NCBI GenBank assembly: GCA_963663235.2
Contig: CAXXNO010000009.1
Coordinates: 64,001-128,000, forward strand
Direction of reading: 5' to 3'
From: Dehalococcoidia bacterium
GTDB lineage: Bacteria > Chloroflexota > Dehalococcoidia > Bin125
Length of the DNA: 64,000 bases
How positions within the stretch are numbered: position 1 is the first letter of the stretch; each line of letters opens with the position of its first letter. The translations under genes were made by a program, and so were the position numbers. The notes beneath the pieces are model-generated. The model saw only the letters and a program-made list of their open reading frames with translations. It was not told where the DNA came from and made no database searches. Shown piece after piece: positions 27,372 to 42,028 of the stretch.

Positions 27372-27466
27372 ACGTCCATGCTAGCGCCGGTTCATCCAGC
27401 GCACGACGCGTGTCGGCCCGGCGCATCCCCATCGACGGTTCCGGCGGCGGCTGTGTGGGGGAAACG

Positions 27467-27521
27467 ACCTCACCCCCTCACCCCCTCACCCCCTCTCCAT
27501 CGGCAAGCGATGGAGAGGGGG
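27467..27521 (+). repeat. REP-like element, copy 1
   Basis: ACCTCACCCCC... then CCCCCTCTCCATCG-GCAAG-CGATGGAGAGGGGG. Confidence 0.9.
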
Positions 27522-27630
27522 GACCGGAATGCCTGCGCCCGCCGCTGGTCAAGCTGGAGAACGTGCTGTGACGGAGCGCCGACCCGGGGTGCTGCTTTTG
27601 GAGAACGGCGGCGGCTCTGTGGGGGAAACG

Positions 27631-27677
27631 ACCTCACCCCCTCACCCCCTCTCCATCGGCAAGCGATGGAGAGGGGG
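27631..27677 (+). repeat. REP-like element, copy 2
   Basis: Same 14-bp perfect stem, GCAAG loop. Confidence 0.9.
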
Positions 27678-27810
27678 GACCGGAATGCCTGCGCCCGCCG
27701 CTGGCCAAGCTAGAGAACGTGCTGTGACGGAACGTCGACCCGGCGTGCTGCTTTTGGAGGACGGCGGCGGCTGTGTGGTACGGTGAGAGCCGCTGCCGCC
27801 GGAGGGCAAG

Positions 27811-27927
27811 ATGAAAGTCCGTGCCTCGATCAAAAAGCGATCCAAGGACGACAAGATCGTCCGGCGTAAGGGTCGCGTGTACATCATCAACAAGAAGAAT
27901 CCCCGCAACAAGCAGCGACAGGGCTAG
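27811..27927 (+). CDS. rpmJ: 50S ribosomal protein L36, cysteine-free (zinc-independent) form
   Basis: GGAGG RBS; [38 protein letters not shown]; too short for the ORF track. Confidence 0.95.
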
Positions 27928-27948
27928 CGTCCCAACGGCCGACAAGGG

Positions 27949-28887: not shown

Positions 28888-29130
28888 CGCCCTGCCATAA
28901 CGCCCGGGACGCGCCCCGCCCTCAGGGAAATCCCGGAGACCGCAGGGGTCGTAGTGGAGCGTGGTCGCCGTGATGGGGCCATTTACCGATGCGCCGGCAC
29001 CGCGTCCCGCACCTACGCTGAACTCCAGTGCAAGAGAACGGCGGCCCGCGCATCGCGAAGAGCGCGGGTCCCGGTCACGACATCGAGTCCGGCCAGGCCG
29101 GCGGACCGGCAGCAGAAAAGGAGCAGTGGG

Positions 29131-29646
29131 ATGACCGACCTCAGCAGCGCGAACGAAGGCGAGCGCCACGACCCAGACGAGAGCGCCGGTACGGAACAGC
29201 TCGTCGTCATGCGGCTGGCGAACGAGGACTACGGCGTGGACATCACCACCGTCCGCGAGATCATCCGCATGCAGAAGATCACCGACGTGCCGCAGGCGCC
29301 GACCTATGTGGAAGGCATCATTAACTTGCGGGGCTCGGTGATCCCCGTCGTGGATCTGCGCAAGCGCTTCGGGCTATCCGCCGCCGAGGAATCGGCCGAT
29401 ACGCGGATCGTGGTGGTGGACGTCAAGGATCACACCGTGGGGCTCGTGGTGGACGGCGTGTCCGAGGTAATCTCCGTACCGGCGAACTCGATCGAGCCGG
29501 TGGGGAACTTCGCCGGCGGCTCCATGGCCAACGACCTGCGCGGCATCGTGAACCTGAGCGAGAAGATGATCATCCTGATCAACCTGGAGACGATGCTCGA
29601 CGCGATCGCCGGCACGGAACTGGAAGAGGCCGTTCGCGTCTCCTGA
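29131..29646 (+). CDS. cheW: Chemotaxis coupling protein CheW
   Basis: YGVDITTVREII, VPQAPTYVEGIINLRGSVIPVVDLRKRF, GLVVDGVSEV; AAGGAG RBS. Confidence 0.93.
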   Translation: MTDLSSANEGERHDPDESAGTEQLVVMRLANEDYGVDITTVREIIRMQKITDVPQAPTYVEGIINLRGSVIPVVDLRKRFGLSAAEESADTRIVVVDVKDHTVGLVVDGVSEVISVPANSIEPVGNFAGGSMANDLRGIVNLSEKMIILINLETMLDAIAGTELEEAVRVS

Positions 29647-29738
29647 CAGCGACTGCCGGCCCGCGCCCCTTGGCCGCGCCTGCGCTATTCTGAGCCGCAG
29701 ATTCACAGCCATCGGCGGCTCAGAGCAGGGAGAGGCGC

Positions 29739-30224
29739 GTGAGCGAAGCGGCCGCTGCGGACCGGGGTCCAGGCGTTACCCCTAACGAGACCGGCGAGCC
29801 CGACTGGCTGGAGTCGCTGGAATACATTCGCCAGACCTACGAGTTCATCGCCGGGAAGGCGCTCTTCGGCGCACATCTGGACGCGGTGGAGCGGGGTCGC
29901 GCTGTTTTCAAGCTGCCGATCTCGCCCATGCTGGGCGGGGGCGTGGCCGGCGGGGTGCACGGCGGCGTGCTGTCCGCTCTGGCGGACATCGCCGTCGTTT
30001 CCGCGGTGCGCACGGTCTGCGTCCAGGGAGACGTGATGCGCGGCACCGCCGAACTGAACATCTCCTACCTGCGCCCGGCGATCGGGCGGGAGTTAACGGT
30101 GACCGGCAGCATTCTGAAGAAGGGCAGCAGCCTGGCGGTCGGCGATGCCGAGATCCACAACGACGAGGGCAAGCTGATCGCCAAGGCGCGCGTCACCTAC
30201 GTGCTGGGGCAGGACGGAGGCTAG
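29739..30224 (+). CDS. PaaI family thioesterase (hotdog fold)
   Basis: VHGGVLSALAD, TAELNISYLRPA. Confidence 0.9.
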   Translation: MSEAAAADRGPGVTPNETGEPDWLESLEYIRQTYEFIAGKALFGAHLDAVERGRAVFKLPISPMLGGGVAGGVHGGVLSALADIAVVSAVRTVCVQGDVMRGTAELNISYLRPAIGRELTVTGSILKKGSSLAVGDAEIHNDEGKLIAKARVTYVLGQDGG

Positions 30225-30234
30225 CGGCACCCCC

Positions 30235-30906
30235 TCACTGCACAGTCTGCGACGCCAGCGACTGCTTGGCGGCGAACAGTTGCAGATCCTGCGCTCCCCG
30301 CAGCCCAAGCTTCTTCACAATATTCGCCTTGTGCTGCGCCACTGTCTTGGGACTGATCACCAGTCCGCCGGCGATATCCCGCGTGCTCTGGCCCTCGCCG
30401 ATCAACTGGATGACCTCCCGCTCGCGGCTGCTCAGCAGCGCCAGGTCATCCTGGCGGTCGAGATCGCTCCGCACCGCCAGCGACACCAGGAGCGGCCCCG
30501 CCAGTTCGGGACTGATGTAGGTCTCGCCCCGCGCCACAGCCCGGATCGCCCGTTCCAGCTCCGCCAGGTCGGCGGCCTTCGATACCAGGCCGACCGCGCC
30601 GGCCCGCAGGACATCGAACACGGTCTCCACCCGCGCCGCCGCGGTCAGCACCACAATGCGCGTCTGCGGGCATTCGCGCTGGATGCGCCGGGTCGCCTCC
30701 AGGCCGTCCAGCAGCGGCATCACGATGTCCATCAAGACAACGTCCGGCCGGATCTCAACGACGGCCTCCACCGCCTGGCGCCCGTTCGCCGCCTGGCCCG
30801 CTACCCGGACACCGTCCATGGACTCCAGCGCGATGGCCATGACGCCGCGCAAGAGGCCGTGATCATCGACGATGAAGACCGAGATCTCTTCGGTGGCGGT
30901 GGTCAT
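30235..30906 (-). CDS. NarL/LuxR family response regulator
   Basis: IVDDH, DVVLMDIVMP, LSSREREVIQLIGEG, ISPKTV. Confidence 0.93.
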   Translation of the reverse strand: MTTATEEISVFIVDDHGLLRGVMAIALESMDGVRVAGQAANGRQAVEAVVEIRPDVVLMDIVMPLLDGLEATRRIQRECPQTRIVVLTAAARVETVFDVLRAGAVGLVSKAADLAELERAIRAVARGETYISPELAGPLLVSLAVRSDLDRQDDLALLSSREREVIQLIGEGQSTRDIAGGLVISPKTVAQHKANIVKKLGLRGAQDLQLFAAKQSLASQTVQ

Positions 30907-31044
30907 GGGCAGCTCCCGCGGGGCCGGAGTTCCTAGGACACCGGCTGAACGAGCCTAGGACAGGGATCATCACCGCCACGTCTTAGGACGGGGCGCGTCG
31001 ATCACGGATCGATCACATGACGGCGGGGGCCGGCGACCCGGAGC

Positions 31045-31751
31045 CTAGGGCGTCCCGGCACCAAGGGTGTAGCCAACTCGGTTGACCGTGACCACGAAGC
31101 GGGCTCCTTGGGATTGGGCTCCAGCTTCCGCCGCAGCCGCCACACGGCCGTGCGCAGGAGGCCGAAGTCATCGACGTAGGCGGGCCCCCAGACGGCGCGA
31201 AGCAAATCGGCCGGCATCAGAACAGCGCCGGCATGCCGGATCAGCTCGGCCAGGAGCCCAAACTCCGTAGGCGTCAACACAACCGGCCGGTTATCGACCA
31301 GCACACGATGCTTGGCGAAGTCAACGGTGAGGCCATCCAGCCGGAACGGCTGGGACGGCGGGGCCGGGTGGTCCGCCGCCCGGCGGAGATTGGCGCGCAC
31401 GCGCGCGATCAATTCCCGCATGCCGAAGGGCTTGATGACGTAGTCATCGGCGCCGAGGTCCAGGCCGCGGACGCGGGAATCTTCGCTGTCCCGCGCGGTC
31501 AGCATGATGATGGGGACGTCGGAGAACTCGCGCACCAGGTGCACCACGTCGAAGCCGTCGAGGTCCGGCAGCATGAGGTCCAGGAGCATGCAGTCCGGCG
31601 CGCTGTCGCGCGCGCGGGCGATGGCCTGGCCGCCGTCGGCCGCTTCCACCACCCGCCAGCCGATCCGTTCCATCTCCATGCGCACGTACCGGCGGATGCG
31701 CGGCTGGTCATCCACGACGAGGATGGTGATGTCCTTGGCTGCGTTCACCAT
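31045..31751 (-). CDS. OmpR/KdpE-like response regulator (single-base frameshift near the C-terminus)
   Basis: VVDDQ, LLDLMLP, GADDYVIKPF, LRRKLEPNP. Adding one C at 31101-31103 restores ..PRFVVTVNRVGY.. ending at the TAG at 31045. Confidence 0.88.
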
Positions 31752-31904
31752 GCAAGTCCCGCGAGCCGTGCTGGAAGGAGGCGACAACCGCGGATGGGTC
31801 CATCCGGCAGGCTCAGTTTGCCCCGTCCATCGCCGTCCCGGCGCCGATAGGCATCACCGGCCCCGACAGCCGTCCCGCATCTATCCTGCGAGAAGCACGG
31901 TACC

Positions 31905-32008
31905 GTTTGCAAGGGCCGCTGTCGCGGCGGTTTTGCACGGGCCGCTGTCGCGGCGGTTTTGCACGGGCCGCTGTCGCGGCGGTTTTGCACGGGCCGCTGT
32001 CGCGGCGG
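31905..32008. repeat. 4 x 26-bp tandem repeat TTTTGCACGGGCCGCTGTCGCGGCGG
   Basis: Units at 31905 (2 mismatches), 31931, 31957 and 31983; no spacers. Confidence 0.93.
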
Positions 32009-32054
32009 GCAGCTCCCTGCTAGCCTGAGCGCCGATGCACGGAACGGACGAGCG

Positions 32055-32255
32055 ATGCAACGTGACCTAGTCGAGATTCTGGTCTGCCCCGTCACCAAAG
32101 AGCCGTTGGAGCTGGTGGTGGAAGAGACGGACGGCGACGAGATCATCCGCGGCCACCTCTACTCCCGCTCCATCGACTTCAAGTACCCGATAGAAGACGG
32201 GATCCCGAACCTCCTGCCGCCGGAGATGCAGAAGGCGCCCAGCGAGGACGACTAG
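32055..32255 (+). CDS. Trm112/YcaR family protein
   Basis: LVEILVCPVTKEPL, YPIEDGIPNLL. Confidence 0.9.
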   Translation: MQRDLVEILVCPVTKEPLELVVEETDGDEIIRGHLYSRSIDFKYPIEDGIPNLLPPEMQKAPSEDD

Positions 32256-32264
32256 CGGCCGCGG

Positions 32265-32924
32265 CTATCCCTCCGCCGCGGCCTCCCGCTGATCGAACTC
32301 GATTGCGGCGTCCAGATCCGCCAGCAGCGCGTCCAGGTCCAACGGCTGCCGGAAATCGGGCGGCCGACGGTAGGTCACGAGGGCGATGATATCGCCCCGG
32401 AGCAGGGCGGCGGCCTCGGCGTCGTCGCCCTCCACCGTGAAAGCGTAGCGACGGGCGCTGTCTCCCAGGCCGCGGACCACCCCGATCGATCGCACGCCAC
32501 GGAAGTTGGGATTGTCCGCCAAGGTGTCGACGAAGGCCGTGAAGAACGGGCCGGGGTCGACGTCGGGCTCCAGCATGAGCACGTCCACGGAGAGCACTTC
32601 GTTCGTGATGGCGACCCGGTAGGTGGCGCGGGCGGCGCCGGTCACCAGGCCCAGGGAGAGGATCGGTTCGCGGTCGTCGCGGGCGACTTCCAGAAAGCGG
32701 TCCGGCAACTCCACGCTGTCGCGCAGCAGGTATCGCTCCAGGAAGGGATCGTTGACGAAGGGCGCCGATTCATCGACGGGCAGTTGGAACGCGGGCGGGA
32801 GCGGCTGGGGAGGCGGCGGCGGGGCCGTTTCCGCCTCCTCCTCGCCGTCGCCCGAGCAGGCGGCGCTCAGGACAATCACGACGCCCGCCAGCGCCGCCGT
32901 GGGGATGAAGCCGCGTCGGATCAT
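32265..32924 (-). CDS. Putative lipoprotein
   Basis: MIRRGF..hydrophobic stretch..LSAAC lipobox, then an acidic/Pro-rich linker. Confidence 0.7.
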   Translation of the reverse strand: MIRRGFIPTAALAGVVIVLSAACSGDGEEEAETAPPPPPQPLPPAFQLPVDESAPFVNDPFLERYLLRDSVELPDRFLEVARDDREPILSLGLVTGAARATYRVAITNEVLSVDVLMLEPDVDPGPFFTAFVDTLADNPNFRGVRSIGVVRGLGDSARRYAFTVEGDDAEAAALLRGDIIALVTYRRPPDFRQPLDLDALLADLDAAIEFDQREAAAEG

Positions 32925-33076
32925 CGCAACGCCTGCAACCCGCCAGCCTGGTCGCCAGTGTATGGGGGTTGCCAGTGTATGGAGAGCCCGGCGCGGCGCC
33001 CGAGCAGTCTGCGCGCGCCGACCATCGTTCTGGTCGCGAACGTCTGTGCTATGCTCGCTCGGACGGAAACGTTGGA

Positions 33077-33107
33077 CTTTAATCCCGGTCCCGTGAGGCC
33101 GGAAAGG
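33077..33107 (+). promoter_or_regulatory. PyrR-binding RNA element in the pyr operon leader
   Basis: CTTTAATCCCGGTCCCGTGAGGCCGGAAAG closely resembles the RUCCNGNGAGGY loop with CUUUAA/AAAG flanks, directly upstream of pyrR. Confidence 0.88.
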
Positions 33108-33180
33108 ACAACGGGGCGCAGCATGCGCGAAGGACACCCGAGAGCCGGGCGCCGCCCCCTACACGGGAGAGCGCGGCCCC

Positions 33181-33747
33181 GTGAGTAGCCCTCACCCGAT
33201 CCCCACGACCGAGGTCCTCTCCGCCGCCGCGATCCGGCGCGCGCTGGTCCGGATCGCCCACGAGATCGTCGAGCGTCACGACGACCCGGCCCGCTTGGTG
33301 CTGGTGGGCATGCGCACGCGCGGCGTCCCGCTGGCCGAGCGGATCGCGGGGGCGATCGAGCAATTCGAGGCGGTCCGCGTACCCGTCGGGGCACTGGACA
33401 TCGGGCTGCACCGCGACGATCTGCCGCTGCGCGGCACCGCGCCACGGCTGCAACCCAGCAACCTCCCGGCCGCCATCGACGAGCAGGTCGTGGTGCTCGT
33501 CGACGACGTCCTCTTCACAGGCCGCTCGATCCGGGCCGCGCTGGACGCACTGATCGACTACGGCCGTCCCGGCGCCATCGAACTGGCCGTGCTGATCGAC
33601 CGCGGCCACCGCGAGTTGCCCATCCGGCCGGACTACGTAGGCAAGAACGTGCCCACGCAGCGAGCGGACGACGTGGTGGTGCGGCTGACGGAGACGGACG
33701 GGTGCGACGAGGTCATTCTGCGCTCCAGGGCGCCATCGCCCGCGTAG
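33181..33747 (+). CDS. pyrR: Pyrimidine operon attenuation regulator/uracil phosphoribosyltransferase
   Basis: [45 protein letters not shown]. Confidence 0.97.
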
Positions 33748-33760
33748 GAGAGGAGCAGCC

Positions 33761-34771
33761 ATGGTCACCAAGCCCCGGACCGAAGCGGCCGCCGGCCGCG
33801 CGGCCGAACCCGCCGAAGAGGCCTCTGCGCAGCCGTGGCCGCACCGCCACCTCCTGGACGTGGACCAACTCACGGCCGCGGAGATCTTGCGTCTGATCGA
33901 GACCACCGAAGCCATGGAGGAGGTCCTGCACCGCCGCGTGCCGCGAACGCCCACCCTGCGCGGCGTCACTCTGTTCACGCTCTTCTACGAGGCCAGCACC
34001 CGCACGCGCGCCTCGTTCGAGCTAGCGGGCAAGGTGCTGGGCGCCGACGTCATCAACATCGCCGCGGGCAGTGCGAGCATCGAGAAGGGGGAGTCGCTGC
34101 TCGATACCGTGCGCACGCTCCAGGCCATCGGCGCGGACATCATCGCGCTGCGCCACCCGCACGCCGGCGCGCCCTATCTCGCCGCCCGCCACGGCAGCGC
34201 GCACATCGTCAACGCGGGCGACGGCGCGCACGCCCACCCGACGCAGGCCCTGCTCGACGCCTACACGCTGCGCAAGGCGCTGGGAACCATTGAGGGCAAG
34301 CGAGTGTGCATCGTGGGGGACATCAAGCACTCGCGTGTAGCGCGATCAAACATCTGGGCGCTGACGAAGTTGGGGGCGCAGGTGACCCTGGTCGGCCCCA
34401 GCACCCTGATGCCCGCCGGGCTCAATGCGTCGCATCCGCTGGCGCTGCCATCGGTCACAACGGATGACGACTTGGACCGCGCGATCGCCGGAGCGGACGC
34501 AGTGATGACCCTGCGCCTGCAGCGGGAGCGCATGCAGAGCGCGTTGTTGCCGTCGGAGCGCGAGTACGCGCGTCGCTACCAGATCACGCCCGCCCGCCTC
34601 GCGCGCGCCGCGCGCGGAGCGCCCGTCCTCCACCCCGGTCCGATGAACGAGGGGATCGAGATCGCGCCGGAGGTGGCGCACGGCAGGCAAAGCGAGATCG
34701 AAAGACAGGTCGAGCACGGCGTAGCCGTGCGCATGGCCGTGCTCTACCTCTTGGGCCGGGGCACAGAATGA
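33761..34771 (+). CDS. pyrB: Aspartate carbamoyltransferase catalytic subunit
   Basis: FYEASTRTRASFE, HPTQALLD, GDIKHSRVARSN, HPGPMNEG. Confidence 0.97.
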   Translation: MVTKPRTEAAAGRAAEPAEEASAQPWPHRHLLDVDQLTAAEILRLIETTEAMEEVLHRRVPRTPTLRGVTLFTLFYEASTRTRASFELAGKVLGADVINIAAGSASIEKGESLLDTVRTLQAIGADIIALRHPHAGAPYLAARHGSAHIVNAGDGAHAHPTQALLDAYTLRKALGTIEGKRVCIVGDIKHSRVARSNIWALTKLGAQVTLVGPSTLMPAGLNASHPLALPSVTTDDDLDRAIAGADAVMTLRLQRERMQSALLPSEREYARRYQITPARLARAARGAPVLHPGPMNEGIEIAPEVAHGRQSEIERQVEHGVAVRMAVLYLLGRGTE

Positions 34772-34908
34772 CCGCCCTGCTGATCCGCGGGGGGCGGGTG
34801 ATGGACCTCACCCCCCGGCCCCCTCTCCATCGTGACCGATGGAGAGGGGGAGAAAGAATGGGGACGGTGTTGAGCCGGGATGCGGCGCACGAGGAGCCGG
34901 CGCGATGA
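34768..34908 (+). other. Extra pyrC 5' end plus REP-like element (copy 3, 34805-34850), forming a 46-aa translationally coupled mini-ORF
   Basis: MTALLIRGGRVMD versus the real pyrC MTDLLIRGGRVID (36/40 nt identical); ATGA overlaps with both the pyrB stop and the pyrC start. Confidence 0.85.
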
Positions 34909-36236
34909 CGGATCTGCTGATCCGCGGGGGGCGGGTGATAGACCCGGCGAACGGCGTGGATGCCCTCCTGGACGTGCTCGTGCAAGACGGGCGGATCGCG
35001 GCCGTCGGCGTCGACGCGCCGGTCGACGCGCCCGTGCTGGACGCCAGCGGGCTGGTCGTGGCGGCCGGCTTCGTCGACCTGCACACGCACCTGCGGGAGC
35101 CGGGCGAAGAGCACAAAGAGACCATCGCCAGCGGGACCGCCGCCGCCGCCCGTGGCGGCTTCACCACCGTCTGTGCCATGCCGAACACGAGCCCAGCGAT
35201 GGACAGCGCGGCCGTGGTGGCGCAGGTGCTGAACGCCGCCCGGGGAGCGCCGGCCCGGGTGCTGCCCGTCGGCGCGATCACCAAGGGACGCGCCGGCAAA
35301 GAGCTGGCCGAGATGGAGGAGTTGCGCGCGGCCGGCGTCGTGGCGTTCAGCGACGACGGCGCCGGCGTCGCCGACGGCGGCGTAGCCCGCCGGGCCTGCG
35401 AGTACGCCGCCGACCTGGGCCTACCGATCAGCGAACACTGCGAGGACCCGGCCCTGGCCGAGGGCGGCCTGATGCACGAAGGCGCCATCGCAACGCGGCT
35501 CGGCCTGCCCGCACAGCCGGCCGAAGCCGAAGTGGCCATGGTCGAGCGCGACCTGCGCCTGGCGGAACGGACCGGCGTCCGCCTGCACCTGGCCCATATC
35601 AGCACGGCGGCGGCGTGCGCGGCGATCGCAAGCGCCAAGGCGCGCGGTCTCTTGGTGACCGCGGAAGTCACGCCCCATCACCTCTTCCTCACCGACGCCG
35701 CCGTCGCCGGAGCCGCCGAGACGCCAGGCGCCCTCGCCTACGACACCAACGCCAAGGTCAACCCGCCGCTGCGCAGCGCGGACGACATCGCCGCCTGCAT
35801 CGAGGCGCTGGCGGAGGGCGTGCTGGATGCCGTGGCCACGGACCACGCCCCACACGCGATCCCCGACAAGCTTTGCGAGTTCGACCGCGCCGCTTTCGGG
35901 ATCAGTGGCTTGGAGACGGCCTTCGGCGTGCTGGGGACGCTGGTGGCGCGGGGCGCGTTTCCACTGGCGACTCCTCTGGCGACCGTGATCGAGCGGCTGA
36001 CCATCGGGCCGGTGCGGGCGTGGGGGCTGGACCGGGGCGACTTGACCGGGCTGGGGACGTTGGGCATCGGCGCGCCCGCGGACGTGGCGATCATCGATCC
36101 GGACGCGGTGTGGACGGTGAAGCCTGAGAGGTTCGCATCGATGGGGAAGAACACGCCGCTGGCGGGGCGGGAGCTGACGGGCCGGGTGGTGGCGACGGTG
36201 TTCGGGGGTCGGGTGGTACACGAGGAACGGGAGTAG
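34905..36236 (+). CDS. pyrC: Dihydroorotase
   Basis: GFVDLHTHLREPG, CAMPNT, KVNPPLR, ATDHAPH. Confidence 0.96.
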   Translation: MTDLLIRGGRVIDPANGVDALLDVLVQDGRIAAVGVDAPVDAPVLDASGLVVAAGFVDLHTHLREPGEEHKETIASGTAAAARGGFTTVCAMPNTSPAMDSAAVVAQVLNAARGAPARVLPVGAITKGRAGKELAEMEELRAAGVVAFSDDGAGVADGGVARRACEYAADLGLPISEHCEDPALAEGGLMHEGAIATRLGLPAQPAEAEVAMVERDLRLAERTGVRLHLAHISTAAACAAIASAKARGLLVTAEVTPHHLFLTDAAVAGAAETPGALAYDTNAKVNPPLRSADDIAACIEALAEGVLDAVATDHAPHAIPDKLCEFDRAAFGISGLETAFGVLGTLVARGAFPLATPLATVIERLTIGPVRAWGLDRGDLTGLGTLGIGAPADVAIIDPDAVWTVKPERFASMGKNTPLAGRELTGRVVATVFGGRVVHEERE

Positions 36237-36468
36237 ATGAGCGAGCGGCAGCCGGCGGCGCTGGTGCTGGAGGACGGGGGCGTCTTCTGGGGGGAACGAC
36301 CTCACCCCCTAACCCCCTCTCCATCGGCAAGCGATGGAGAGGGGGAACGCGCGAGGATACTCCCTGTTCGGGCGGGGCAGGCCGGCACGAGTGGATCCCA
36401 GGAGGGAAGGATGGAGAGGGGGGACCGGAATACCTGCGCCCGCCGATGGCCAAGCTGGAGAACGTGCT
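36237..36468 (+). other. Extra carA 5' end plus REP-like element (copy 4, 36299-36345), spacer and REP half-site (36410-36423)
   Basis: MSERQPAALVLEDGGVFWG begins immediately after the pyrC stop; it is out of frame with the full carA. Confidence 0.85.
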
Positions 36469-37584
36469 GTGACGGAGCGCCGGCCCGGCGTGCTGGTTTT
36501 GGAGGACGGCGGTGTCCTGCGCGGCCATCGCATCGGCGCGGACGGCGAGGCGTGGGGCGAAGTGGTGTTCAACACATCGATGACCGGCTACCAAGAGATG
36601 TTGACCGACCCCTCCTACGCCGGGCAGATCCTGGCGCTCACGTATCCGCTGATCGGCAACTACGGGCTGGAACCCCCGATCGACGAGAGCGCGCGGGTGC
36701 AGGTGCGCGGCCTGGTGGTGCGCGAAGACTGCCAAGCGCCCAGCCATCCTCACGGCGGCGTCACGCTGCACGAGTACCTCCTGGCCGCCGGCATCCCCGG
36801 CCTGGCGGGGGTCGACACGCGCGCGCTCACGCGCCGGCTGCGGAAGCGGGGCGTGATGCAAGGGCTGATCGTCGAGCCCGCGGAGATCGAGCGCGCGCGC
36901 GCGCGCCTGGCGGACCTGCCCGCCTACGACAGCCAGGACTTCACGGGGTCGGTGAGCGCGGCGGCGGCGTACGACTGGGAGCGGGGGCCGGTCGATGTGG
37001 GATCGACGCGAGGCGGTCACCGCATCGTCGTGCTGGACGAAGGCTTGAAGTACAACATCCTGCGCAGCCTGCGGGCGCGCGACTGTCGAGTGACCGTCGT
37101 GCCGGCGCACACCCCGGCGGCGGAGGTGTTGGCGCTGGAGCCGGACGGGGTGGTGCTATCGCCGGGGCCCGGCGACCCGGCGCTGCGCGACGCGCAGGTG
37201 GAGACGACCAAGCGGCTGCTGGGTCGCGTGCCGCTGATGGGCATCTGCCTGGGGCACCAAATGATCGCGCGGGCGCTGGGGGCTGGCACGTTCAAGCTGA
37301 AGTTCGGCCACCGCGGCGGCAACCATCCGGTCAAGGAGCTGAGCACGGGGCGCGTTTCCATCACGGCGCAGAACCACGGCTACGCGGTCGACCCGGAGAG
37401 GCTGGAGGGGGGCGCGTCGGTGAGCCACATCAACCTGCACGACGGGACGGTCGAGGGGCTGACGCATCGCGAGTATCCATTGGTGTCGATCCAGTACCAC
37501 TCGGAGGCGTCGCCGGGGCCGCTGGACAACGGGTATTTGTTCGACCGGTTCTTGGAGATGGTGCGTGAGGCGAAGGGGGGCTGA
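36469..37584 (+). CDS. carA: Carbamoyl-phosphate synthase small subunit
   Basis: LVLEDG, GEVVFNTSMTGYQE..TDPSY, GICLGHQ, FGHRGGNHPV, QYHSEASPGP; GTG start after GGAG. Confidence 0.96.
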   Translation: MTERRPGVLVLEDGGVLRGHRIGADGEAWGEVVFNTSMTGYQEMLTDPSYAGQILALTYPLIGNYGLEPPIDESARVQVRGLVVREDCQAPSHPHGGVTLHEYLLAAGIPGLAGVDTRALTRRLRKRGVMQGLIVEPAEIERARARLADLPAYDSQDFTGSVSAAAAYDWERGPVDVGSTRGGHRIVVLDEGLKYNILRSLRARDCRVTVVPAHTPAAEVLALEPDGVVLSPGPGDPALRDAQVETTKRLLGRVPLMGICLGHQMIARALGAGTFKLKFGHRGGNHPVKELSTGRVSITAQNHGYAVDPERLEGGASVSHINLHDGTVEGLTHREYPLVSIQYHSEASPGPLDNGYLFDRFLEMVREAKGG

Positions 37585-37922
37585 TGGGCACACGGTTGCC
37601 GGGAACCGGCATGCTCCTGTTGCTCGCGGTAACGGCGGGAACCGTCGGGACCGTGTCGTTCGGGTTCGGGCTGGCGTGCTTCGCGAGCGGCGACGCGGGG
37701 GTTGACTGCGCGGTCCTCACGGTTGCCGTGCCGTTCGTCGCGTGGCCGTTGGGGATCGCGCTGGCGATCCTGGGAGCGGCGCGGCGGGGCTGGCTGGTGG
37801 CTTTCGAGGAGGAGGAGAGAACCTCACCCCCCGGCCCCCTCTCCATCGTGACCGATGGAGAGGGGGAGCAAGCATCGGCATCGTCGAAGGCACGCTCGAC
37901 GGCGGGGGAGAGGCGAGGATGA
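37584..37922 (+). CDS. Small two-TM hypothetical protein between carA and carB, containing REP-like copy 5 (37821-37866)
   Basis: TGATG overlap with the carA stop; two hydrophobic segments; the 3' part reads through the hairpin. Confidence 0.55.
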   Translation: MGTRLPGTGMLLLLAVTAGTVGTVSFGFGLACFASGDAGVDCAVLTVAVPFVAWPLGIALAILGAARRGWLVAFEEEERTSPPGPLSIVTDGEGEQASASSKARSTAGERRG

Positions 37923-37936
37923 ACGGGTGAGCAGCC

Positions 37937-40900
37937 GTGCATAAGCCTCGCAAGGTGCTGATCATCGGCAGCGGGCCGATCGTCATCGGGCAGGCGGCCG
38001 AGTTCGACTACGCCGGCACGCAGGCCTGCAAGGCGATGCGCGAGGAGGGCGTGACCTCCGTCCTAGTGAACTCGAACCCGGCGACGATCATGACCGACGA
38101 GGACGTGGCGGACGTGGTCTACATCGAACCGCTGACCGTCGACGTGCTCACCCGCGTGATCGAGCGGGAGCGGCCGGACGGCCTGCTGCCCACGCTGGGC
38201 GGGCAAACGGCGCTGAACCTGGCGGTGGAGCTGGCCGACGCGGGGGTGCTAGAGCGCCACAACGTGCGGCTGCTGGGCACGCCGCTGGAGACGATCAAGA
38301 ACGCCGAGGACCGCGAGCGCTTCAAAACCATGCTGCGAGCGATCGACGAGCCATCGCCGCCGAGCCGCACGGTTACCACGGCGAAGGAAGCGGACCAAGC
38401 GCTCGCGGAGATCGGCCTGCCGGCGGTGATCCGCCCCGCGTACACCCTGGGAGGAACGGGCGGCGGCATCGCGCGGACGAGCGACGAGTTCGCCACGCTC
38501 GTCCGCGGCGGACTGGCGGCCAGCCCAATCACCCAAGTGTTAATCGAGCAGTCCCTGCTGGGCTGGAAGGAGATCGAGTACGAGGTGATGCGGGACGCCG
38601 CCGACACCTGCATCACGGTCTGCAACATGGAAAACCTGGACCCGATGGGCGTGCACACGGGCGACTCGATCGTCGTCGCGCCCAGCCAGACGCTCTCCGA
38701 CAAAGACTACCAGCGGCTGCGATCGGCGGCGCTCAAGATCATCCGGGCGCTGGGGATCGAAGGCGGCTGCAACATCCAGTTCGCGCTTGCGCCGCGTCCC
38801 GACATCGTGGAGTGGGGCCCTGCGCCGGACGACGGCTCCCTGCCCTACCACGTGATTGAGGTCAACCCGCGCGTCAGCCGATCATCGGCGCTGGCCAGCA
38901 AAGCGACCGGCTACCCGATCGCACGGGTGGCGGCGAAGATCGCCGCGGGGAAGCGGCTGGACGAAATCCCGAACGCGGTCACGAGCAAGACCAGCGCCGC
39001 GTTCGAGCCGGCGCTGGACTACGTCGTGGTCAAGATCCCGCGGTGGCCGTTCGACAAGTTCGGCGCCGGCGACCGTTCCCTGGGCACGCAGATGAAGGCC
39101 ACCGGGGAAGTCATGGCTATCGAGCGCAGCTTCGGCGCTGCCTTGCAGAAGGCCGTGCGCTCGCTGGAGATCGGTGGCCGCACATTGCTGTGGGAGGAGC
39201 GCGGGGATCTGGATCCCTCGACCGCCGCGCAGACCGCCACGGACAACCGCCTCTGGCACCTCATGGCCGCGCTGCGTCGCGACGCGGATCCCATCGCCCT
39301 AGCCAAGCGGACGGGGATCGATCCGTGGTTCCTGGACCGACTGCTAGAGCTGGTCCGCATGGAGCAGCGGCTGCTGTCGGAGCCGCTGCTCCACGCCTTG
39401 CTCTACGAGGCCAAGCGCACGGGGTTCAGCGACGAACAGATCGCCAACCTGTCCGGCTCCGTCACCGAGAAAGTGCGCCAGCTGCGGATCGATCGGGGCA
39501 TCCGACCCGTCTACAAGATGGTCGATACCTGCGCCGCCGAGTTCGACGCCGCCACGCCGTATTTCTACTCCACCTACGAGGAGGAGAATGAAGCGCTCCC
39601 CGACGCGACTCCCAGGGCGCTAGTCATCGGCAGCGGGCCGATCCGCATCGGCCAGGGGATCGAGTTCGACTACTGCTCGGTGAAAGCGGCGCAGGCGCTG
39701 CAGGCGGCCGGCTACGCGGCGATCATGGCCAACAGCAACCCGGAGACGGTCTCCACCGACTTCGACACCTCCAACCGCCTCTATTTTGAGCCGCTCGACG
39801 AAGAGGCCGTGCGCGACATCCTGGACAACGAACAAGGGCGCGACGGCGGCGCCCCCGTGGCCAGCATCCTGCAGTTCGGCGGCCAGACCGCGATCAACCT
39901 CGCCGAACCGCTCAGCGTCGCGGCGCAGCCCATCCTGGGCTCATCCGCGGAGGCCATCGATCGGGCCGAAGACCGCAAGCGCTTCGAGGCGTTCCTGGCG
40001 GACCTCGGCATCCCCCAGCCCCCCGGCACCACCGTCACCAACGTCGAGGATGCGGTGATCGCGGCGGAGACCATCGGCTATCCGGTGGTGGTACGCCCGT
40101 CCTACGTGCTCGGCGGGCGGGCGATGGAGATCGTGCAGGATCCGAGCGAGGTGGCACGCTACATGAACGAAGCGCTGGAGTCGTCACCCGACCGGCCGGT
40201 GCTGATCGACAGGTACCTCGCCGGGCTGGAGGTGGAGGTCGACGCCATCTGCGACGGCCAGCAGGTGCTGATCCCCGGCATCATGGAGCACATCGAGCGG
40301 GCTGGCGTCCACTCCGGCGACTCCATGGCCGTCTATCCCGCCCCCAGCCTGCGCCCCGAAGAGGTGGAGACGATCACCGCCTACACGCGGCAGATCGGCC
40401 TGGCGTTGGAGGTGCGCGGCCTGATGAACGCCCAGTACGTCGTGATGCGGCGCGGGGAGGAGAGCGACATCTTCGTCCTGGAGGTGAACCCCCGCGCCAG
40501 CCGCACCGTCCCCTTTCTCAGCAAAGTGACCACCGTGCCCATGGTCCACGTGGCCGATCAATGTGATGCTGGGTCGCAGCCTGGCGGATCAGGGCTACCC
40601 CGACGGTCTCTGGCCGGAGCGCGACCTCGTGGCGATCAAAGCGCCGGTGTTCAGCATGGCCAAGCTCACCGGCGTCGACACCTACCTGGGCCCCGAGATG
40701 AAATCCACCGGCGAAGTGATGGGCATCGACCGGACCCTGGAGCGCGCCCTGGCCAAGGCGCTGCTGGCCGCGGACGCATCGCTGCCGCGCGACGGGACCG
40801 TGCTGCTGAGCATCGCCGACAGGGACAAGCCCAGCGCGATTCCCATGATCCGCAACCTGGGCGCCGCGGGCTACCGCATCTTTGCCACGCCCGGCACCGC

Positions 40901-41258
40901 CGACCTCGTCCAAGGACTGGGGGTGAAGGTGACCATCGTGCCCAAGCGGCTGCATGAGGGTGATCCCACGGTGATCGAGCTGGTGCGCCAGCACACGGTC
41001 GATTTCGTGGTCAACACGCCGGAGGGACGCCGGGCGCCGCTGCGGGACGGGTTCGCCATCCGCCGCGCCGCCAGCGAGGAGGGCATCCCCTGCTTCACCA
41101 GCATCGACACCGCGGCTCAGGCGGTGGCGGCCATGGTCACACACAGCGGCGACTACAACGTGCTGCCGCTGAGCGACTACACGGGGCGGGGGCAGTCAGC
41201 ATCGCGCGCGCGGGCGCGCTCAAGCGAACCGGTGACCGAGCCGGAGCGTCCCGCGTGA
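37937..41258 (+). CDS. carB: Carbamoyl-phosphate synthase large subunit (one extra base at about 40554)
   Basis: [38 protein letters not shown], second half [16 protein letters not shown]; continues [13 protein letters not shown] and the MGS domain in the shifted frame. Confidence 0.95.
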
Positions 41259-42028
41259 TCCCCCACGGCCCGGCGACCGTTCTCAGCAGCGAGGAGATCT
41301 ATCCCGGCACGTTCGTCACCTGGTACGCGGGCAAGGAGTTCTGCCGCGCCGCCGAACCAGGCCAGTTCGTGATGGTGCAGCCGCGAGACGGGCTCGATCC
41401 GTTTCTGCCCCGCGCCTTCTCCTTCTATCGCTTCCGCGGGGAGGACGAGCAGCGCGAGTTCGCGCTGCTGTACAGCGTGATCGGCGCCGCGACGGAGTTG
41501 ATGGCGGCCCAGGAAGTGGGCGACACGATCATCGCGACCGGGCCGCTGGGCCACGGCTTCCAAGTGCGCCCGGGCGCCGGCAACCTCCTCCTGATCGGCG
41601 GCGGCGTGGGCATGGCGCCGCTGGTGGCGCTGGCCGAGCGGGAGGTGGCGGCGGGCCGGACGGTGGTGATGTGCTGCGGCGCGCGCACGGCGGCGTCGGT
41701 GTTTCCCGCCTCGCTGCTGCCGGCCGAGGTGGAGTACGCCGTGACGACGGAGGACGGATCGATGGGGCAGCAGGGGCTGGTCACCGACCTCTTCGCCCGC
41801 TACCTGCCCTGGGCGGACCAGACACTGGCCTGCGGTCCGGTGCCGATGTTTCGCAGCATGGCGGAGGTCGTGCGGCGGGACGGGATGCGCCGGCCGGCGC
41901 AGATCCTGATGGAGACGGAGATGGCCTGCGGGACCGGCATCTGCTACGGCTGCGCCGTCTTCACCAAGAAGGGCGTCAAGCTGTGCTGCAAGGACGGTCC
42001 GCGCTTCGAGCTGTTGGACGTGTTCTAG
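41255..42028 (+). CDS. pyrK: Dihydroorotate dehydrogenase electron transfer subunit
   Basis: PGQFVMV, GPLGHGF, GGGVGMAP, MACGTGICYGC..C..GP. Confidence 0.93.
   Translation: MIPHGPATVLSSEEIYPGTFVTWYAGKEFCRAAEPGQFVMVQPRDGLDPFLPRAFSFYRFRGEDEQREFALLYSVIGAATELMAAQEVGDTIIATGPLGHGFQVRPGAGNLLLIGGGVGMAPLVALAEREVAAGRTVVMCCGARTAASVFPASLLPAEVEYAVTTEDGSMGQQGLVTDLFARYLPWADQTLACGPVPMFRSMAEVVRRDGMRRPAQILMETEMACGTGICYGCAVFTKKGVKLCCKDGPRFELLDVF

Follow-up and report, generated by a model that had tools for sequence, protein, structure and literature searches.

Orphaned and working starts of pyrC and carA flank a triplex-type hairpin repeat in the pyr operon of a Dehalococcoidia bacterium

How can a hairpin repeat settle in a pyrimidine operon whose genes adjoin without gaps? 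The question arises from a window of 64,000 nucleotides, the whole stretch of DNA analyzed here, from the genome of a Dehalococcoidia bacterium (G000; a 2.75 Mb assembly of 14 contigs, 92% complete). We confirm that pyrC and carA share one layout (Table 1), in which an orphaned start of 13 or 19 codons, respectively, is followed by a GC-rich hairpin repeat, a spacer carrying a Shine-Dalgarno sequence, and the working gene. The repeat sits 13 codons inside pyrC and 19 codons inside carA, and both genes survive because each start exists twice. Thus, insertion in two gap-free junctions breaks nothing. Both cassettes contain CCTCACCCCC, a 3-nt linker and a hairpin with a perfect 14-bp stem. Folded as DNA, this hairpin reaches -18.1 to -18.6 kcal/mol, with z values of -4.2 to -6.7 relative to shuffled sequences. 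Its arm occurs 13 times in the window when up to 2 mismatches are permitted, versus 1.55 expected, and 13 occurrences were reached in 0 of 100 shuffles.

Table 1. Coordinates of the pyr operon features and of the related array upstream of rpmJ
Feature	Position	Strand	Description
rpmJ-upstream array	27442..27778	+	two 156-nt units of repeat, GACCGGAA spacer and carA codons 1-15; hairpins 27489-27521 and 27645-27677; carA codons from 27568 and 27724
pyrB (aspartate carbamoyltransferase)	33761..34771	+	ORF; Pfam OTCace_N and OTCace; stop is the TGA within ATGA 34768-34771
relic pyrC start	34768..34807	+	13 codons at the ancestral coupled position; pyrC starts there in 10/10 relatives
bridging ORF (predicted)	34768..34908	+	46 codons, from relic ATG to a TGA overlapping the working pyrC ATG
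repeat copy 1	34805..34862	+	CCTCACCCCC third block 34806-34815, linker 34816-34818, hairpin 34819-34850, short tail
pyrC spacer	34863..34904	+	unique; Shine-Dalgarno GAGGAG 34891-34896, ATG 8 nt later
working pyrC (dihydroorotase)	34905..36236	+	Pfam amidohydrolase/DHOase; N-terminus aligns with relatives; first 40 nt (34905-34944) are the second copy
relic carA start	36237..36293	+	19 codons directly 3' of the pyrC TAG (TAG-ATG); coupled as in relatives
repeat copy 2	36294..36346	+	5' extension, third block CCTCACCCCC 36300-36309, linker TAA, hairpin 36313-36345
post-hairpin carA segment	36347..36468	+	unique filler 36347-36395; 3' half of second hairpin variant 36396-36422; GACCGGAA tail and spacer, then Shine-Dalgarno GGAGAA 36457-36462
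working carA	36469..37584	+	GTG start; Pfam CPSase_sm_chain from residue 9, GATase; alignment with relatives; first 57 nt are a divergent second copy
small membrane ORF	37584..37922	+	112 aa, between carA and carB; no Pfam family; homologues in relatives; contains repeat copy 3 (37821-37878, hairpin 37835-37866)
carB (context)	37937..40957	+	Pfam

The first-pass annotation had taken the upstream copies for the original starts, and comparison of both junctions across relatives bears this out. The pyrB stop overlaps the pyrC start in all 10 relatives, and only empty alleles occur at the ancestral coupled positions: the hairpin is absent from 10 of 10 pyrB-pyrC junctions and 11 of 11 pyrC-carA junctions. 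None of the 10 relatives has an uncoupled pyrB-pyrC pair. In G003 pyrC and carA are uncoupled, with a different repeat in their 55-nt spacer. The two pyrC start copies are identical at 36 of 40 nt, and the four differences carry no polarity. The predicted bridging ORF is coupled at both ends: its ATG lies in the ATGA that contains the pyrB stop, and its TGA overlaps the ATG of working pyrC. The ORF of the carA relic runs on out of frame through carA. A third copy of the repeat is read in frame in the C-terminal tail of the small membrane ORF, with no flanking duplication, and homologues of this ORF in G004, G012, G017, G016 and G009 are repeat-free. Three repeat copies have come into an operon that lacked intergenic DNA in its ancestral state. 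Copies 1 and 3 are 95% identical across 58 nt and share only these 58 nt, which shows that the 3' side is variable.

Repeats might have been mis-joined in a metagenome-assembled genome, and both the fragmentation and incompleteness of the assembly and the tendency of public-run contigs to break at hairpins would suit such an error. The stretch is present in 20 public runs from 8 studies, and we compared contigs from 4 runs of 4 studies; one of the runs may be G000's own source sample. A contig from another study (X20 record 24) matches 34777-35580 with 0 differences and includes the pyrC cassette in full; positions 33619-34834 are found in X1 record 3. Contigs from three studies connect pyrC to the hairpin across the relic carA start (X1 record 6, X3 record 31 and X18 record 15), and two others (X1 record 7 from 36396, X3 record 32 from 36453) reach carA. 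Positions 36346-36395 are bridged by no contig among the matches listed. The cassettes are therefore not assembly chimeras in the view of these contigs, and mis-assembly is the least credible of all the explanations considered here.

The dispersed GC-rich repeat measures 57-80 nt and has the hairpin as its core; 42 such hairpins occur genome-wide, in agreement with the earlier description of the repeat as a dispersed unit without genes. The repeat begins with a pyrimidine block, continues with a linker, and ends with a hairpin whose purine arm mirrors that block. This third block lies on exactly one side of 32 of the 42 hairpins, with a 3-nt linker in 25, and agrees with the mirror image of the purine arm at 9 of 10 positions, T replacing A. 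The repeat belongs, as a long-stem form, to the BoxC/PIT/TM "intrastrand triplex" family, which is known in bacteria and unexplained. The TM_ECO sequences in Table 1 of Holder 2015 (PMC4666352) have exactly this T-for-A mirror block. The same source gives, for the purine strand, a CCCTCTCC arm, a loop, a GGAGAGGG arm, a 3-nt linker (TTA or CCG/CCR) and a GGGTGAGG mirror block, and it describes dozens of copies, inverted pairs among them, with a transposase nowhere near; our repeat is alike in each respect. Its authors tie triplex repeats to local genome instability. In contrast to the repeats described there, the stem here is extended to 14 bp. The E. coli motif is reported as always intergenic (PMC4666352), whereas our copies lie in operon junctions and gene ends, with duplications of 10-57 bp and co-carried flanks. 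The main text of that paper uses the word "duplication" 0 times and leaves flank duplication undescribed.

The order of relic end, repeat 5' end, repeat tail and working end recurs at purS/hisB, at a gene pair near C4:656 kb, and at the rpmJ promoter. The convergent purS and hisB genes, whose stops abut in relatives G012, G004 and G005, show a 22-nt duplication (21/22 identical), and an overlap between the relic purS tail and the end of hisB persists. At the convergent C4:656 kb pair, the relic end retains the shared CTAG stops, as in G009. A copy of CGGCGGCGGCTGTGTGG stands at each end of the array upstream of rpmJ, whose product is L36 (Pfam): the left one is at 27442-27458, and the right one, at 27762-27778, runs on into the rpmJ -10 region. 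In G003, G012 and G005 the array is absent and a TGTG..TA..GT promoter-like motif is kept. The array units are 92-95% identical to the carA cassette. The carA spacer and 45 nt of carA have been carried to this locus; the working carA copy differs from each copy there at 5 of 45 nt. The proposal that repeat, spacer and carA start form a unit is strengthened by this second occurrence.

Filled and empty sites can be compared in G009 and G015, which are congeneric and about 94% identical. One recent event between them left 14 nt at the 3' end of a gene perfectly duplicated, and there the repeat tail supplies the new stop. Another, between convergent genes in G015, is a tail-to-tail repeat pair with 5' ends outward and a 10-nt duplication (9/10 identical). 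Many G009-G015 polymorphisms are gains or losses beside other copies that cannot be polarized. An extra unit beside a resident copy in G015 has no duplication, and neither does a repeat copy between hisB and purS in G003. Flanking duplication is enriched around the repeat genome-wide: 10 of 42 copies score at least 19.5, compared with a 99th percentile of 19 among 500 random sites. The score is 30 for pyrC, 19.5 for purS and 17 for carA.

The family behaves as a one-ended insert. The 5' (third-block) end always adjoins the orphaned copy, the 3' side is variable and can take neighboring DNA along, and a direct duplication of 10-57 bp brackets the insert, though not universally. A replacement N-terminus built into the element, as originally proposed, does not fit these observations: the same family also duplicates gene 3' ends and a promoter piece, recent insertions leave 14- and 10-bp target duplications, and copy 3 lies in frame without any.

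Where did the second starts come from? The inference of the first-pass annotation that the second start came from a divergent allele fares well for carA. For pyrC, where the 4 differences in 40 nt lack polarity, a local target duplication is enough. The counts previously given for carA hold, with 13 of 19 residues identical and 7 codons differing synonymously. At the nucleotide level 18 of 57 sites differ (4, 4 and 10 at codon positions 1, 2 and 3), and the 39 matches compare with 45.4 +/- 4.0 in coding windows of G000 and G003. The carA start of G003, the nearest relative, differs from the relic at 8 of 57 nt and from the working copy at 17 of 57. Of the 18 sites at which the copies disagree, G003 has the base of the upstream copy at 12, that of the downstream copy at 3 and that of neither at 3, a polarity that, with only 57 nt to draw on, is suggestive and not decisive. 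The percentiles among the coding windows, about the top 20% for the relic and the bottom 10% for the working copy, are equally suggestive and not decisive. Because the relic matches G003 at 49 of 57 nt, as conserved as live coding sequence, it appears to be young.

Repeat copy 2 also has a foreign look. Its TTA-type linker is found in 1 of 24 G000 copies versus 16 of 26 in G009 and 17 of 27 in G015, and is the majority type in genus g10. The GACCGGA-type tail occurs 3 times in G000's 2.75 Mb, always in this copy lineage, versus 23 times per 600 kb in G009 and in G015. The arm and tail of the post-hairpin segment match 32 places in G009 and 30 in G015; the rest has no match in G000 and 30 relatives beyond the two rpmJ-locus copies. 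The 27-nt hairpin half (query positions 51-77) matches G000's own other hairpin variant, so the carA cassette is a mosaic. The divergence between the carA copies is like that of orthologues in separate genera, and the subtype of the repeat is foreign to G000; the second carA start therefore probably arrived together with the repeat, from another lineage. The pyrC spacer has no second copy in G000 or in 30 relatives, and resembles the pyrB 3' end no more than chance predicts (p 0.39-0.53). No source of either spacer was found in those genomes, and the closest pyrC in metagenome contigs has 66% protein identity.

The explanation we favor, and place a little above an even chance, is a one-ended insert that leaves an orphaned original and a second, working start, with an immigrant start at carA and possibly a plain duplication at pyrC. 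A DNA piece beginning at the repeat's 5' end would be pasted in. Its far end would be resolved first, by homology if the end of the same gene is carried along and otherwise by microhomology, and an illegitimate join of the 5' end, placed from a few to some tens of bases beyond, would then create the duplication. The original start stays joined to the upstream gene as an orphan, and the working start is the second copy, which is preceded by a new spacer and a ribosome-binding site of its own. Only events leaving both neighbors complete would survive. The left joins share short bases, namely GA(C/T)CC native to pyrC in relatives against ..ACC in the element, and GGGG at carA.

The main competitor, which we rate as rather unlikely, holds that all duplications, carA included, are target-site duplications from staggered breaks that were filled in, with carA diverging in place or being converted from the rpmJ-locus copies. 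The G015 pair and the rpmJ locus are clean cases in which homologous cargo is not possible, identity is high in five of six cases (9/10, 14/14, 16-17/17, 21/22 and 36/40), and the 5/45 difference makes exchange between working carA and the rpmJ locus conceivable. However, a relic that had drifted neutrally for long should have departed further from the ancestral state than the working copy, which is the opposite of the 49/57 match and the 12 to 3 count, and the carA repeat subtype is atypical for G000. The lengths at pyrC and carA (40 and 57 nt) would be outliers; that they far exceed the clean cases of 10-17 nt also tells against the explanation we favor. A further point against the latter is that the duplications begin exactly at start codons, which a random staggered cut does not predict unless only the shortest viable duplication is likely. 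With a steep fall-off in length, such a duplication would end just at the start codon, as observed, and this speaks for the competitor. A passive repeat is less probable than that: the loci would be scars of homology-facilitated illegitimate recombination with related lineages whose spacers bear repeats, the repeat marking the foreign end. Copy similarity that starts and stops exactly at start and stop codons, natural-looking leaders with Shine-Dalgarno sequences before working copies, a purS tail resembling that of relatives, the carA divergence and foreign subtype, and the repeat-bearing spacer of G003 all speak for this reading. A passive marker does not predict that the illegitimate join is the repeat's 5' boundary in 6 of 6 single-copy cases, and insertion went into non-homologous targets at the rpmJ locus and at the G015 pair. 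Nor do the uniformly coupled pyrB-pyrC pairs of the relatives suit it, and no donor was found in G000, 30 relatives or metagenome contigs.

Two further explanations are very improbable. The duplications might have come first, in a genome prone to short tandem duplications of gene ends, with the repeat later settling in dispensable DNA. A 147-bp array does repeat the nth 3' end 5.4 times with no copy of a triplex-type repeat, and several repeat-bearing arrays have 2-3 units; but without exception the repeat occupies the precise junction of the two copies, the sequence upstream of the first copy is not the source of the spacers, and a 40-nt tandem copy of the pyrC start on its own would cause a frameshift. 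Filled G009/G015 sites, moreover, differ from the empty allele by insert and duplication in one step. Less probable still is that the cassettes evolved as leaders regulating the pyr operon, with leader peptides and attenuator hairpins that respond, for example, to PyrR. A PyrR-like gene lies upstream (Pfam), the hairpin is strong, and the predicted 46-codon ORF is coupled at both ends. Against this, the same unit occurs 42 times at unrelated loci, the cassettes are missing from all relatives' operons, the carA relic ORF is out of frame, and positions 26500-41500 have no Rfam match, PyrR element included, at E up to 1.

Returning to the one-ended insert, what enzyme might move it? No Y1 transposase is found in G000 and 18 family relatives (19 genomes), and no dedicated transposase of the tested families was found. 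Genes for DUF559, reverse transcriptase, TnpB, an IS110-type transposase and Ku are all absent from the 92% assembly of G000. In G009 and G015 the only DUF559 gene of each genome sits within a repeat array, with repeat tails facing the gene and 5' ends outward; in G024 the DUF559 gene is split and is found within that genome's repeat cluster. The DUF559 nuclease of these relatives, which we take to have a Vsr-like fold, is thus a candidate enzyme. The first-pass annotation had suggested a DUF559 gene flanked by the hairpin, which is found in relatives and not in G000, and a REP-like element served by a RAYT, which gives way to the triplex-type repeat.

The comparison with known systems follows from these features. 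Like REPs and REPINs, the repeat is a short GC-rich hairpin found in clusters and inverted pairs, and in relatives a small nuclease gene lies between inward-facing copies. It differs in having no GTAG/CGTC tag and in flanking DUF559 instead of a Y1 transposase, and we know of no REPINs that leave long duplications. Homology-facilitated illegitimate recombination, reportedly described in natural transformation by de Vries and Wackernagel in 2002 and by Prudhomme et al. in 2002, combines one homologous and one microhomology join, adds foreign DNA beside a homologous anchor, and can yield short duplications or deletions of recipient DNA. The two joins proposed here are of these kinds, but the illegitimate one is always the repeat's 5' end, and the repeat also enters non-homologous targets. 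MIRU repeats of mycobacterial operons, said to have been described by Supply et al. in 1997, lie between operon genes and carry a small ORF whose start and stop overlap the neighbors' stop and start, as the 46-codon pyrB-pyrC bridge does at both ends. Our repeat, in contrast, is no tandem VNTR unit of 40-100 bp, the carA cassette lacks an in-frame bridge, and to our knowledge no duplicated gene starts have been described for MIRUs. Unlike MITEs and Rickettsia palindromic elements, it has duplications of variable length (0, 10, 14, 17, 22, 40 and 57 nt), single units without terminal inverted repeats, and a variable 3' end with transduced flank. It resembles MITEs as a gene-less, structured repeat with flanking direct repeats, and resembles Rickettsia palindromic elements in that copy 3 is read in frame within a protein.

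Two genes of the pyrimidine operon in G000, the source genome (Dehalococcoidia bacterium, GCA_963663235.2), carry a relic copy of their own start upstream of the complete working gene, and the two copies are separated by a cassette composed of a GC hairpin repeat and a spacer (see table). The stop codon of pyrB is located inside the ATGA at positions 34768-34771, whose ATG also opens the relic pyrC start. The ORF of 46 codons that begins at this ATG ends in a TGA that overlaps the ATG of working pyrC. At carA, the hairpin is followed by 49 nt of unique filler and then by the 3' half of a second hairpin variant, and the cassette ends with a tail and spacer that place GGAGAA 6 nt 5' of the GTG start. 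Two further repeat units reside 5' of rpmJ. The counts given for the two carA copies in the first-pass annotation, with 13 of 19 residues identical and 7 codons differing synonymously, were reproduced.

Features of the pyrimidine operon and its repeat cassettes (window coordinates)
Feature	Position	Strand	Basis or remark
Pyrimidine operon: PyrR-like gene, pyrB, pyrC, carA, small membrane ORF, carB	window	+	ORFs and Pfam
Relic pyrC start, 40 nt	34768-34807	+	36/40 identical to the first 40 nt of working pyrC
pyrC cassette repeat: CCTCACCCCC, 3-nt linker, perfect hairpin with 14-bp stem	34819-34850 (hairpin)	+	sequence reading
pyrC spacer, 42 nt		+	unique; GAGGAG 8 nt 5' of ATG
Working pyrC	34905-36236	+	
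Relic carA start, 57 nt	36237-36293	+	directly 3' of the pyrC TAG
carA cassette hairpin	36313-36345	+	same kind of unit as at pyrC
Working carA	36469-37584	+	GTG start
Third repeat unit, in the small ORF before carB	37835-37866 (hairpin)	+	read in frame within the ORF's C-terminal tail

The hairpin arm occurs 13 times in the window versus 1.55 expected, a count that was reached by 0 of 100 shuffles, and the computed folding energy of the hairpins as DNA is about -18 kcal/mol (z -4.2 to -6.7). The stretch is present in 20 public runs from 8 studies, and the contigs of 4 of these runs were aligned to the window. One contig spans positions 34777-35580 with 0 differences and therefore covers the whole pyrC cassette, although one public run may itself be the source of the assembly. 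Contigs from three studies proceed from pyrC through the relic carA copy and into the hairpin, and two others enter carA from positions 36396 and 36453; among the contigs listed for the 4 runs, none bridges 36346-36395. These data make it very unlikely that the cassettes are an assembly chimera. No strain with an empty allele was evident, in that none of the 15 joints listed for the 4 runs skips a cassette (190 further joints exist beyond these). No RNA run is present among the listed public runs that hold the stretch.

The nearest genomes compared belong to other genera of the same family (~70-80% DNA identity); the species representatives include no genome of the same genus, and a search of metagenome contigs with pyrC gave a best protein identity of 66%. 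In these relatives, pyrB and pyrC are joined by a stop-start overlap (ATGA or GTGA) and the hairpin is absent from all 10 junctions read. Likewise, the hairpin is absent from 11 of 11 pyrC-carA junctions, most of which also lack a spacer (two additional loci without the pyrC end are not counted among the 11). The empty junctions, which were sought as a check on the original proposal, argue that the upstream copies represent the original gene starts and that the cassettes are insertions in the G000 lineage.

The nearest relative, G003, carries its own 55-nt insert at the pyrC-carA junction (L014) with a different hairpin repeat, CCGTTCGTCC..GGACGAACGG. The pyrC stop retains the old ATGA, and a TTG/GTG start is located 3' of the insert. 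Coupled junctions seem to be struck repeatedly by different repeats. The corresponding junction in G005 (L022) has ~470 nt of extra sequence with lower GC content that contains an ORF.

A small two-helix membrane ORF (37584-37922, +) located between carA and carB is kept in at least five relatives, where its stop overlaps the carB start or falls just 5' of it. The ORF matches no Pfam family, and G003 has a repeat-filled spacer of ~100 nt at this position instead. Another ORF begins at the relic carA ATG (36237-37568, +) with GGGAG retained just 5', and remains open for 443 codons off frame through nearly all of carA. This is probably an effect of GC composition, because a comparable off-frame ORF of 415 codons extends through pyrC (34880-36127). 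Ribosomes that initiate at the relic carA start could interfere with carA.

The same layout is found elsewhere in G000. For each copy of the repeat, 260 nt on either side were aligned with 15-mer masking and compared with 500 random sites as a control. Flank scores of at least 19.5 were obtained for 10 of 42 copies, whereas the 99th percentile of the random sites is 19, which is an enrichment of flanking duplications; several of these high scores reflect tandem arrays of repeat plus spacer. The scores for pyrC, purS and carA are 30, 19.5 and 17, respectively.

Three of these other sites can be read in detail. The stops of the convergent genes purS and hisB overlap or abut in three relatives (G012, G004 and G005). 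In G000, hisB is overlapped by a 41-nt relic of the end of purS, which is followed by the repeat, by a spacer that forms a new purS tail, and by purS; the insert is flanked by a 22-nt duplication (21/22 identical). At a second convergent pair (C4:656 kb), two repeat units are located among three copies of the last codons of a gene, the outermost of which retains the CTAG where both stops overlap, as in G009. At the rpmJ promoter, a 17-nt stretch occurs on both sides of a pair of 156-nt units. Its right-hand copy runs on into a TGTG..TA..GT motif that is conserved in G003, G012 and G005, all of which lack the insert. In all six single-copy cases (one of them in G009), the orphaned copy adjoins the third-block (5') end of the repeat and the working part is on the hairpin-tail side.

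The full rpmJ motif, TGTG(G/C)TA(C/G)GGTGA, is located ~30 nt 5' of the gene (27769-27800), is conserved across four genera, and is probably an extended -10 promoter. G003 carries the repeat at the same two places as G000, namely hisB/purS (L123, C1:1083918) and the C4:656 kb pair (L118/L228, C2:144757), where both genomes have the unusual loop ATGTCA.AGC. Thus, these copies may have persisted since the two genera split, or the same sites may have been hit repeatedly. Another array in G000 (C8:33892-34686) has 5.4 units of 147 nt with 92% matches and repeats the end of the gene nth; the repeat is absent from this array.

Recent events can be viewed in G009 and G015, which are members of one genus, are ~94% identical and are collinear. 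Spanning alignments of 600 kb from each revealed two clean pairs of filled and empty sites. In G009 (~452.3 kb), the repeat lies in the last codons of a gene, is flanked by a perfect 14-nt duplication, and provides a new stop codon from its tail. In G015 (~2546.5 kb), a tail-to-tail pair of units (209 nt, both 5' ends outward) separates two convergent genes, the stops of which overlap in G009, and the flanking duplication is 10 nt (9/10 identical). An additional 57-nt unit in G015 is situated directly beside a resident copy and has no duplication. Most other differences between the two genomes are gains or losses next to other copies, with no readable duplication and with unreadable polarity.

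The original proposal, in which a REP-like cassette inserts at gene 5' ends and supplies a replacement N-terminus from a divergent allele, described the arrangement correctly and was right in part about its meaning. A decayed larger duplication that included the 3' end of the upstream gene was considered as a source of the spacers, which are no closer to the sequence 5' of the first copy than are shuffles (p 0.39-0.995). Therefore, the duplications truly begin at the start codons. No source was found in G000 for the pyrC spacer, the carA filler, or the carB and purS spacers, and none was found in 30 relatives. The pyrC copies differ at 4 of 40 nt without polarity and the repeat is of the type usual for G000, and here target duplication is enough.

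The carA copies match at only 39 of 57 nt. The carA start of G003 matches the relic at 49 of 57 nt versus 40 of 57 for the working copy, and live coding windows of 57 nt give 45.4 +/- 4.0 matches between G000 and G003. The relic therefore appears as conserved as functional sequence, which suggests that it is young, and the two copies appear to have diverged like orthologues of different genera. At the 18 sites that differ between the copies, G003 agrees with the relic at 12, with the working copy at 3, and with neither at 3. The carA unit is also the only one of 24 in G000 with a TTA-type linker, which is the majority type in G009 (16/26) and G015 (17/27). In G000, the GACCGGA-type tail is present only in the carA copy and two rpmJ derivatives, whereas G009 and G015 each have 23 per 600 kb. 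The divergence of the copies, the young relic, the polarity, and the atypical linker and tail favor the view that the working carA start was brought in with the repeat and derives from a divergent allele, as judged over the 57 nt on which this reading rests. However, the half hairpin in the cassette is G000's own variant. In a scar of homology-facilitated illegitimate recombination, one join of the foreign segment is made by homology and the other by microhomology. The carA site has a foreign-like start and repeat subtype and a GGGG at the left join that is common to element and target; a donor was sought in 30 relatives and in metagenome contigs, and none was found. At the left join of pyrC, relatives have GA(C/T)CC where the element begins with ..ACC.

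The 3' side of the element is variable. Sister copies 1 and 3 have 58 nt in common and then diverge. Each rpmJ unit consists of the repeat with the unusual 5' extension of the carA copy, followed by the carA spacer and carA codons 1-15, and is 92-95% identical to the carA cassette. The repeat and its 3' flank were therefore copied out of a carA locus into an unrelated site.

There are 42 such hairpins in the G000 genome, 32 of which have the CCTCACCCCC third block on exactly one side, in 25 cases with a 3-nt linker. Read in mirror image, the purine arm agrees with this block at 9 of 10 positions. Dozens of copies are present in each of G003, G005, G009, G015 and G024; a strict pattern search of five relatives returned only 5 because their loops differ. 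By block pattern and copy number, the G000 element appears to be a member of the known BoxC/PIT/TM triplex-motif family. The fold was computed for the hairpin alone, and the triplex is predicted from the block pattern. Rfam gave no match across 26500-41500 at E values up to 1. In addition, G000 has at least two other repeat modules that form BIME-like mosaics with the triplex repeat (e.g., C9:1827-5221, C6:126594-150700 and C12:104969-107100). One begins with ACCTCACCCTTCCGCTGTGCGAAGGGCGCAAGCGCC and the other is the CCTTCGAC..GCTCAGGAC.. hairpin family; the word ACCTCACCC occurs 111 times in the genome.

Two other classes of mobile repeat were considered. A MITE of a DDE transposon has terminal inverted repeats and generates a target duplication whose length is constant, but the duplications observed here are 0, 10, 14, 11-17, 22, 40 and 57 nt, and the single units have unlike ends. 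REP/REPIN-RAYT systems are recognized by a Y1 (RAYT) transposase gene flanked by the repeats. Y1 transposase (PF01797) was detected in 0 of 19 family genomes (G000 and 18 relatives, including the complete genomes G005 and G009), and control genomes were positive. The foot of a REP hairpin is described as having a conserved GTAG or CGTC tetranucleotide (PMC3733652). The G000 copies begin with ..ACCTCACCCC and the linker and carry neither tag, and the REP identity was abandoned.

The first-pass annotation had also suggested a search for a RAYT or DUF559 gene flanked by the hairpin, and the DUF559 half of this suggestion holds in three relatives. The single DUF559 gene of G009 (C1:1734872-1735942) lies inside repeat arrays of 5+5 copies and that of G015 (C3:607643-608401) inside arrays of 2+3 copies, and in both cases the tails face the gene and the 5' ends point away from it. 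A split DUF559 gene in G024 (C1:374359-375142) lies inside a repeat cluster with copies on both sides. Overall, 8 of the 12 loci read have a third-block or hairpin motif no more than ~200 nt from DUF559. The open reading frame of the G015 gene extends 5' into a repeat copy. No DUF559 gene bracketed by inward-facing repeat copies was found in G000 (92% complete) or in G003. The assembled 92% of G000 yielded no Y1_Tnp, RVT_1, TnpB zinc ribbon, IS110 Transposase_20, Ku or DUF559, and the best tblastn match there to the G009 and G015 DUF559 proteins has an E value of 0.05. The first and last 400 nt of the 14 G000 contigs contain almost no repeat words, and there is no sign of a nuclease unit concealed in a gap between contigs.

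Compared with the relatives, the footprints are those of an insertion whose 5' end is fixed and whose 3' end varies and carries flanking DNA. The flanking duplications span 10-57 nt and leave both neighboring genes complete. At a dispensable target, the tail of the small membrane ORF that five relatives conserve without the repeat, there is no duplication. In the reading that we consider slightly more likely than not, a piece of DNA that starts at the third-block end would be pasted into the target, and its far end would be resolved by homology or microhomology. Joining of the 5' end slightly further along would create the duplication, and selection would retain only events that regenerate gene ends. 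Unequal exchange between two copies might then produce the observed arrays of two to three units, and also precise loss. A further-reaching reading, possible but doubtful, is that BoxC/TM repeats are one-ended mobile units that would be cut at the third-block end, perhaps by a DUF559 nuclease, and would drag the adjoining gene end as a homology arm into the same gene of other cells.

It is rather unlikely that plain target duplication explains every case, since this process fits five of the six duplications and accommodates non-homologous targets, but does not fit the polarity at carA. A passive scar of recombination with foreign DNA would account for the codon-exact boundaries and natural-looking leaders, and yet we consider it improbable given that the constant join at the 5' end and the rpmJ and G015 insertions would be left unexplained. 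The nth array demonstrates that G000 does make tandem repeats of gene ends, and so the duplication might have come first and the repeat later. This order is highly improbable, however, as it does not explain why the repeat is located exactly at every joint. Proposals that the cassettes are a regulatory leader or an assembly artefact are poorly supported.

Filled and empty sites with exact boundaries reveal a fixed 5' end, a variable 3' end with carried DNA, and flanking duplications by which gene starts, gene ends and a promoter are restored. Any mechanism for the spread of BoxC/PIT/TM repeats, including one based on DUF559, must reproduce these footprints. Genes that are coupled in translation or have overlapping stops can be invaded harmlessly by a selfish repeat. 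Such insertions can give rise to orphaned gene starts, small bridging ORFs and long out-of-frame ORFs, a point of caution for annotators. If the repeats are indeed one-ended mobile units, then the outcome of a relic plus a working gene end would represent a self-repairing insertion, by which a selfish repeat colonizes zero-spacer operon junctions and convergent-gene junctions and moves gene ends across lineages.

The repeat family itself is already known, and what is new is the set of insertion footprints and the regeneration of gene ends at zero-spacer junctions. 'Duplication' occurs 0 times in the main text of Holder 2015 (PMC4666352), where flanking duplications go unmentioned, and no open-access paper was found that describes duplications where BoxC/TM repeats insert or that links these repeats to DUF559. 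That report describes a motif in which a pyrimidine arm and a purine arm form a hairpin and a G-rich third block mirrors the purine arm, all on one strand, with triplex formation examined by CD/NMR. The motif is present in >260 genomes and is tied to local instability, and its authors report no transposase nearby and found no mobility function (PMC4666352). The TM_ECO/BoxC/PIT sequences in its Table 1 have three blocks, T-for-A in the mirror block, and TTA or CCG linkers (Holder 2015, PMC4666352), and the G000 repeat has the same three blocks, the same T-for-A exchange and the same TTA or CCG linkers. In E. coli, the motif is reported to be always intergenic (PMC4666352), whereas in G000 the repeat occupies stretches of pyrC, carA and purS that were once coding, and one copy is read in frame within the small ORF. 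An exclusively intergenic location is a habit reported in one species rather than a structural criterion for this family.
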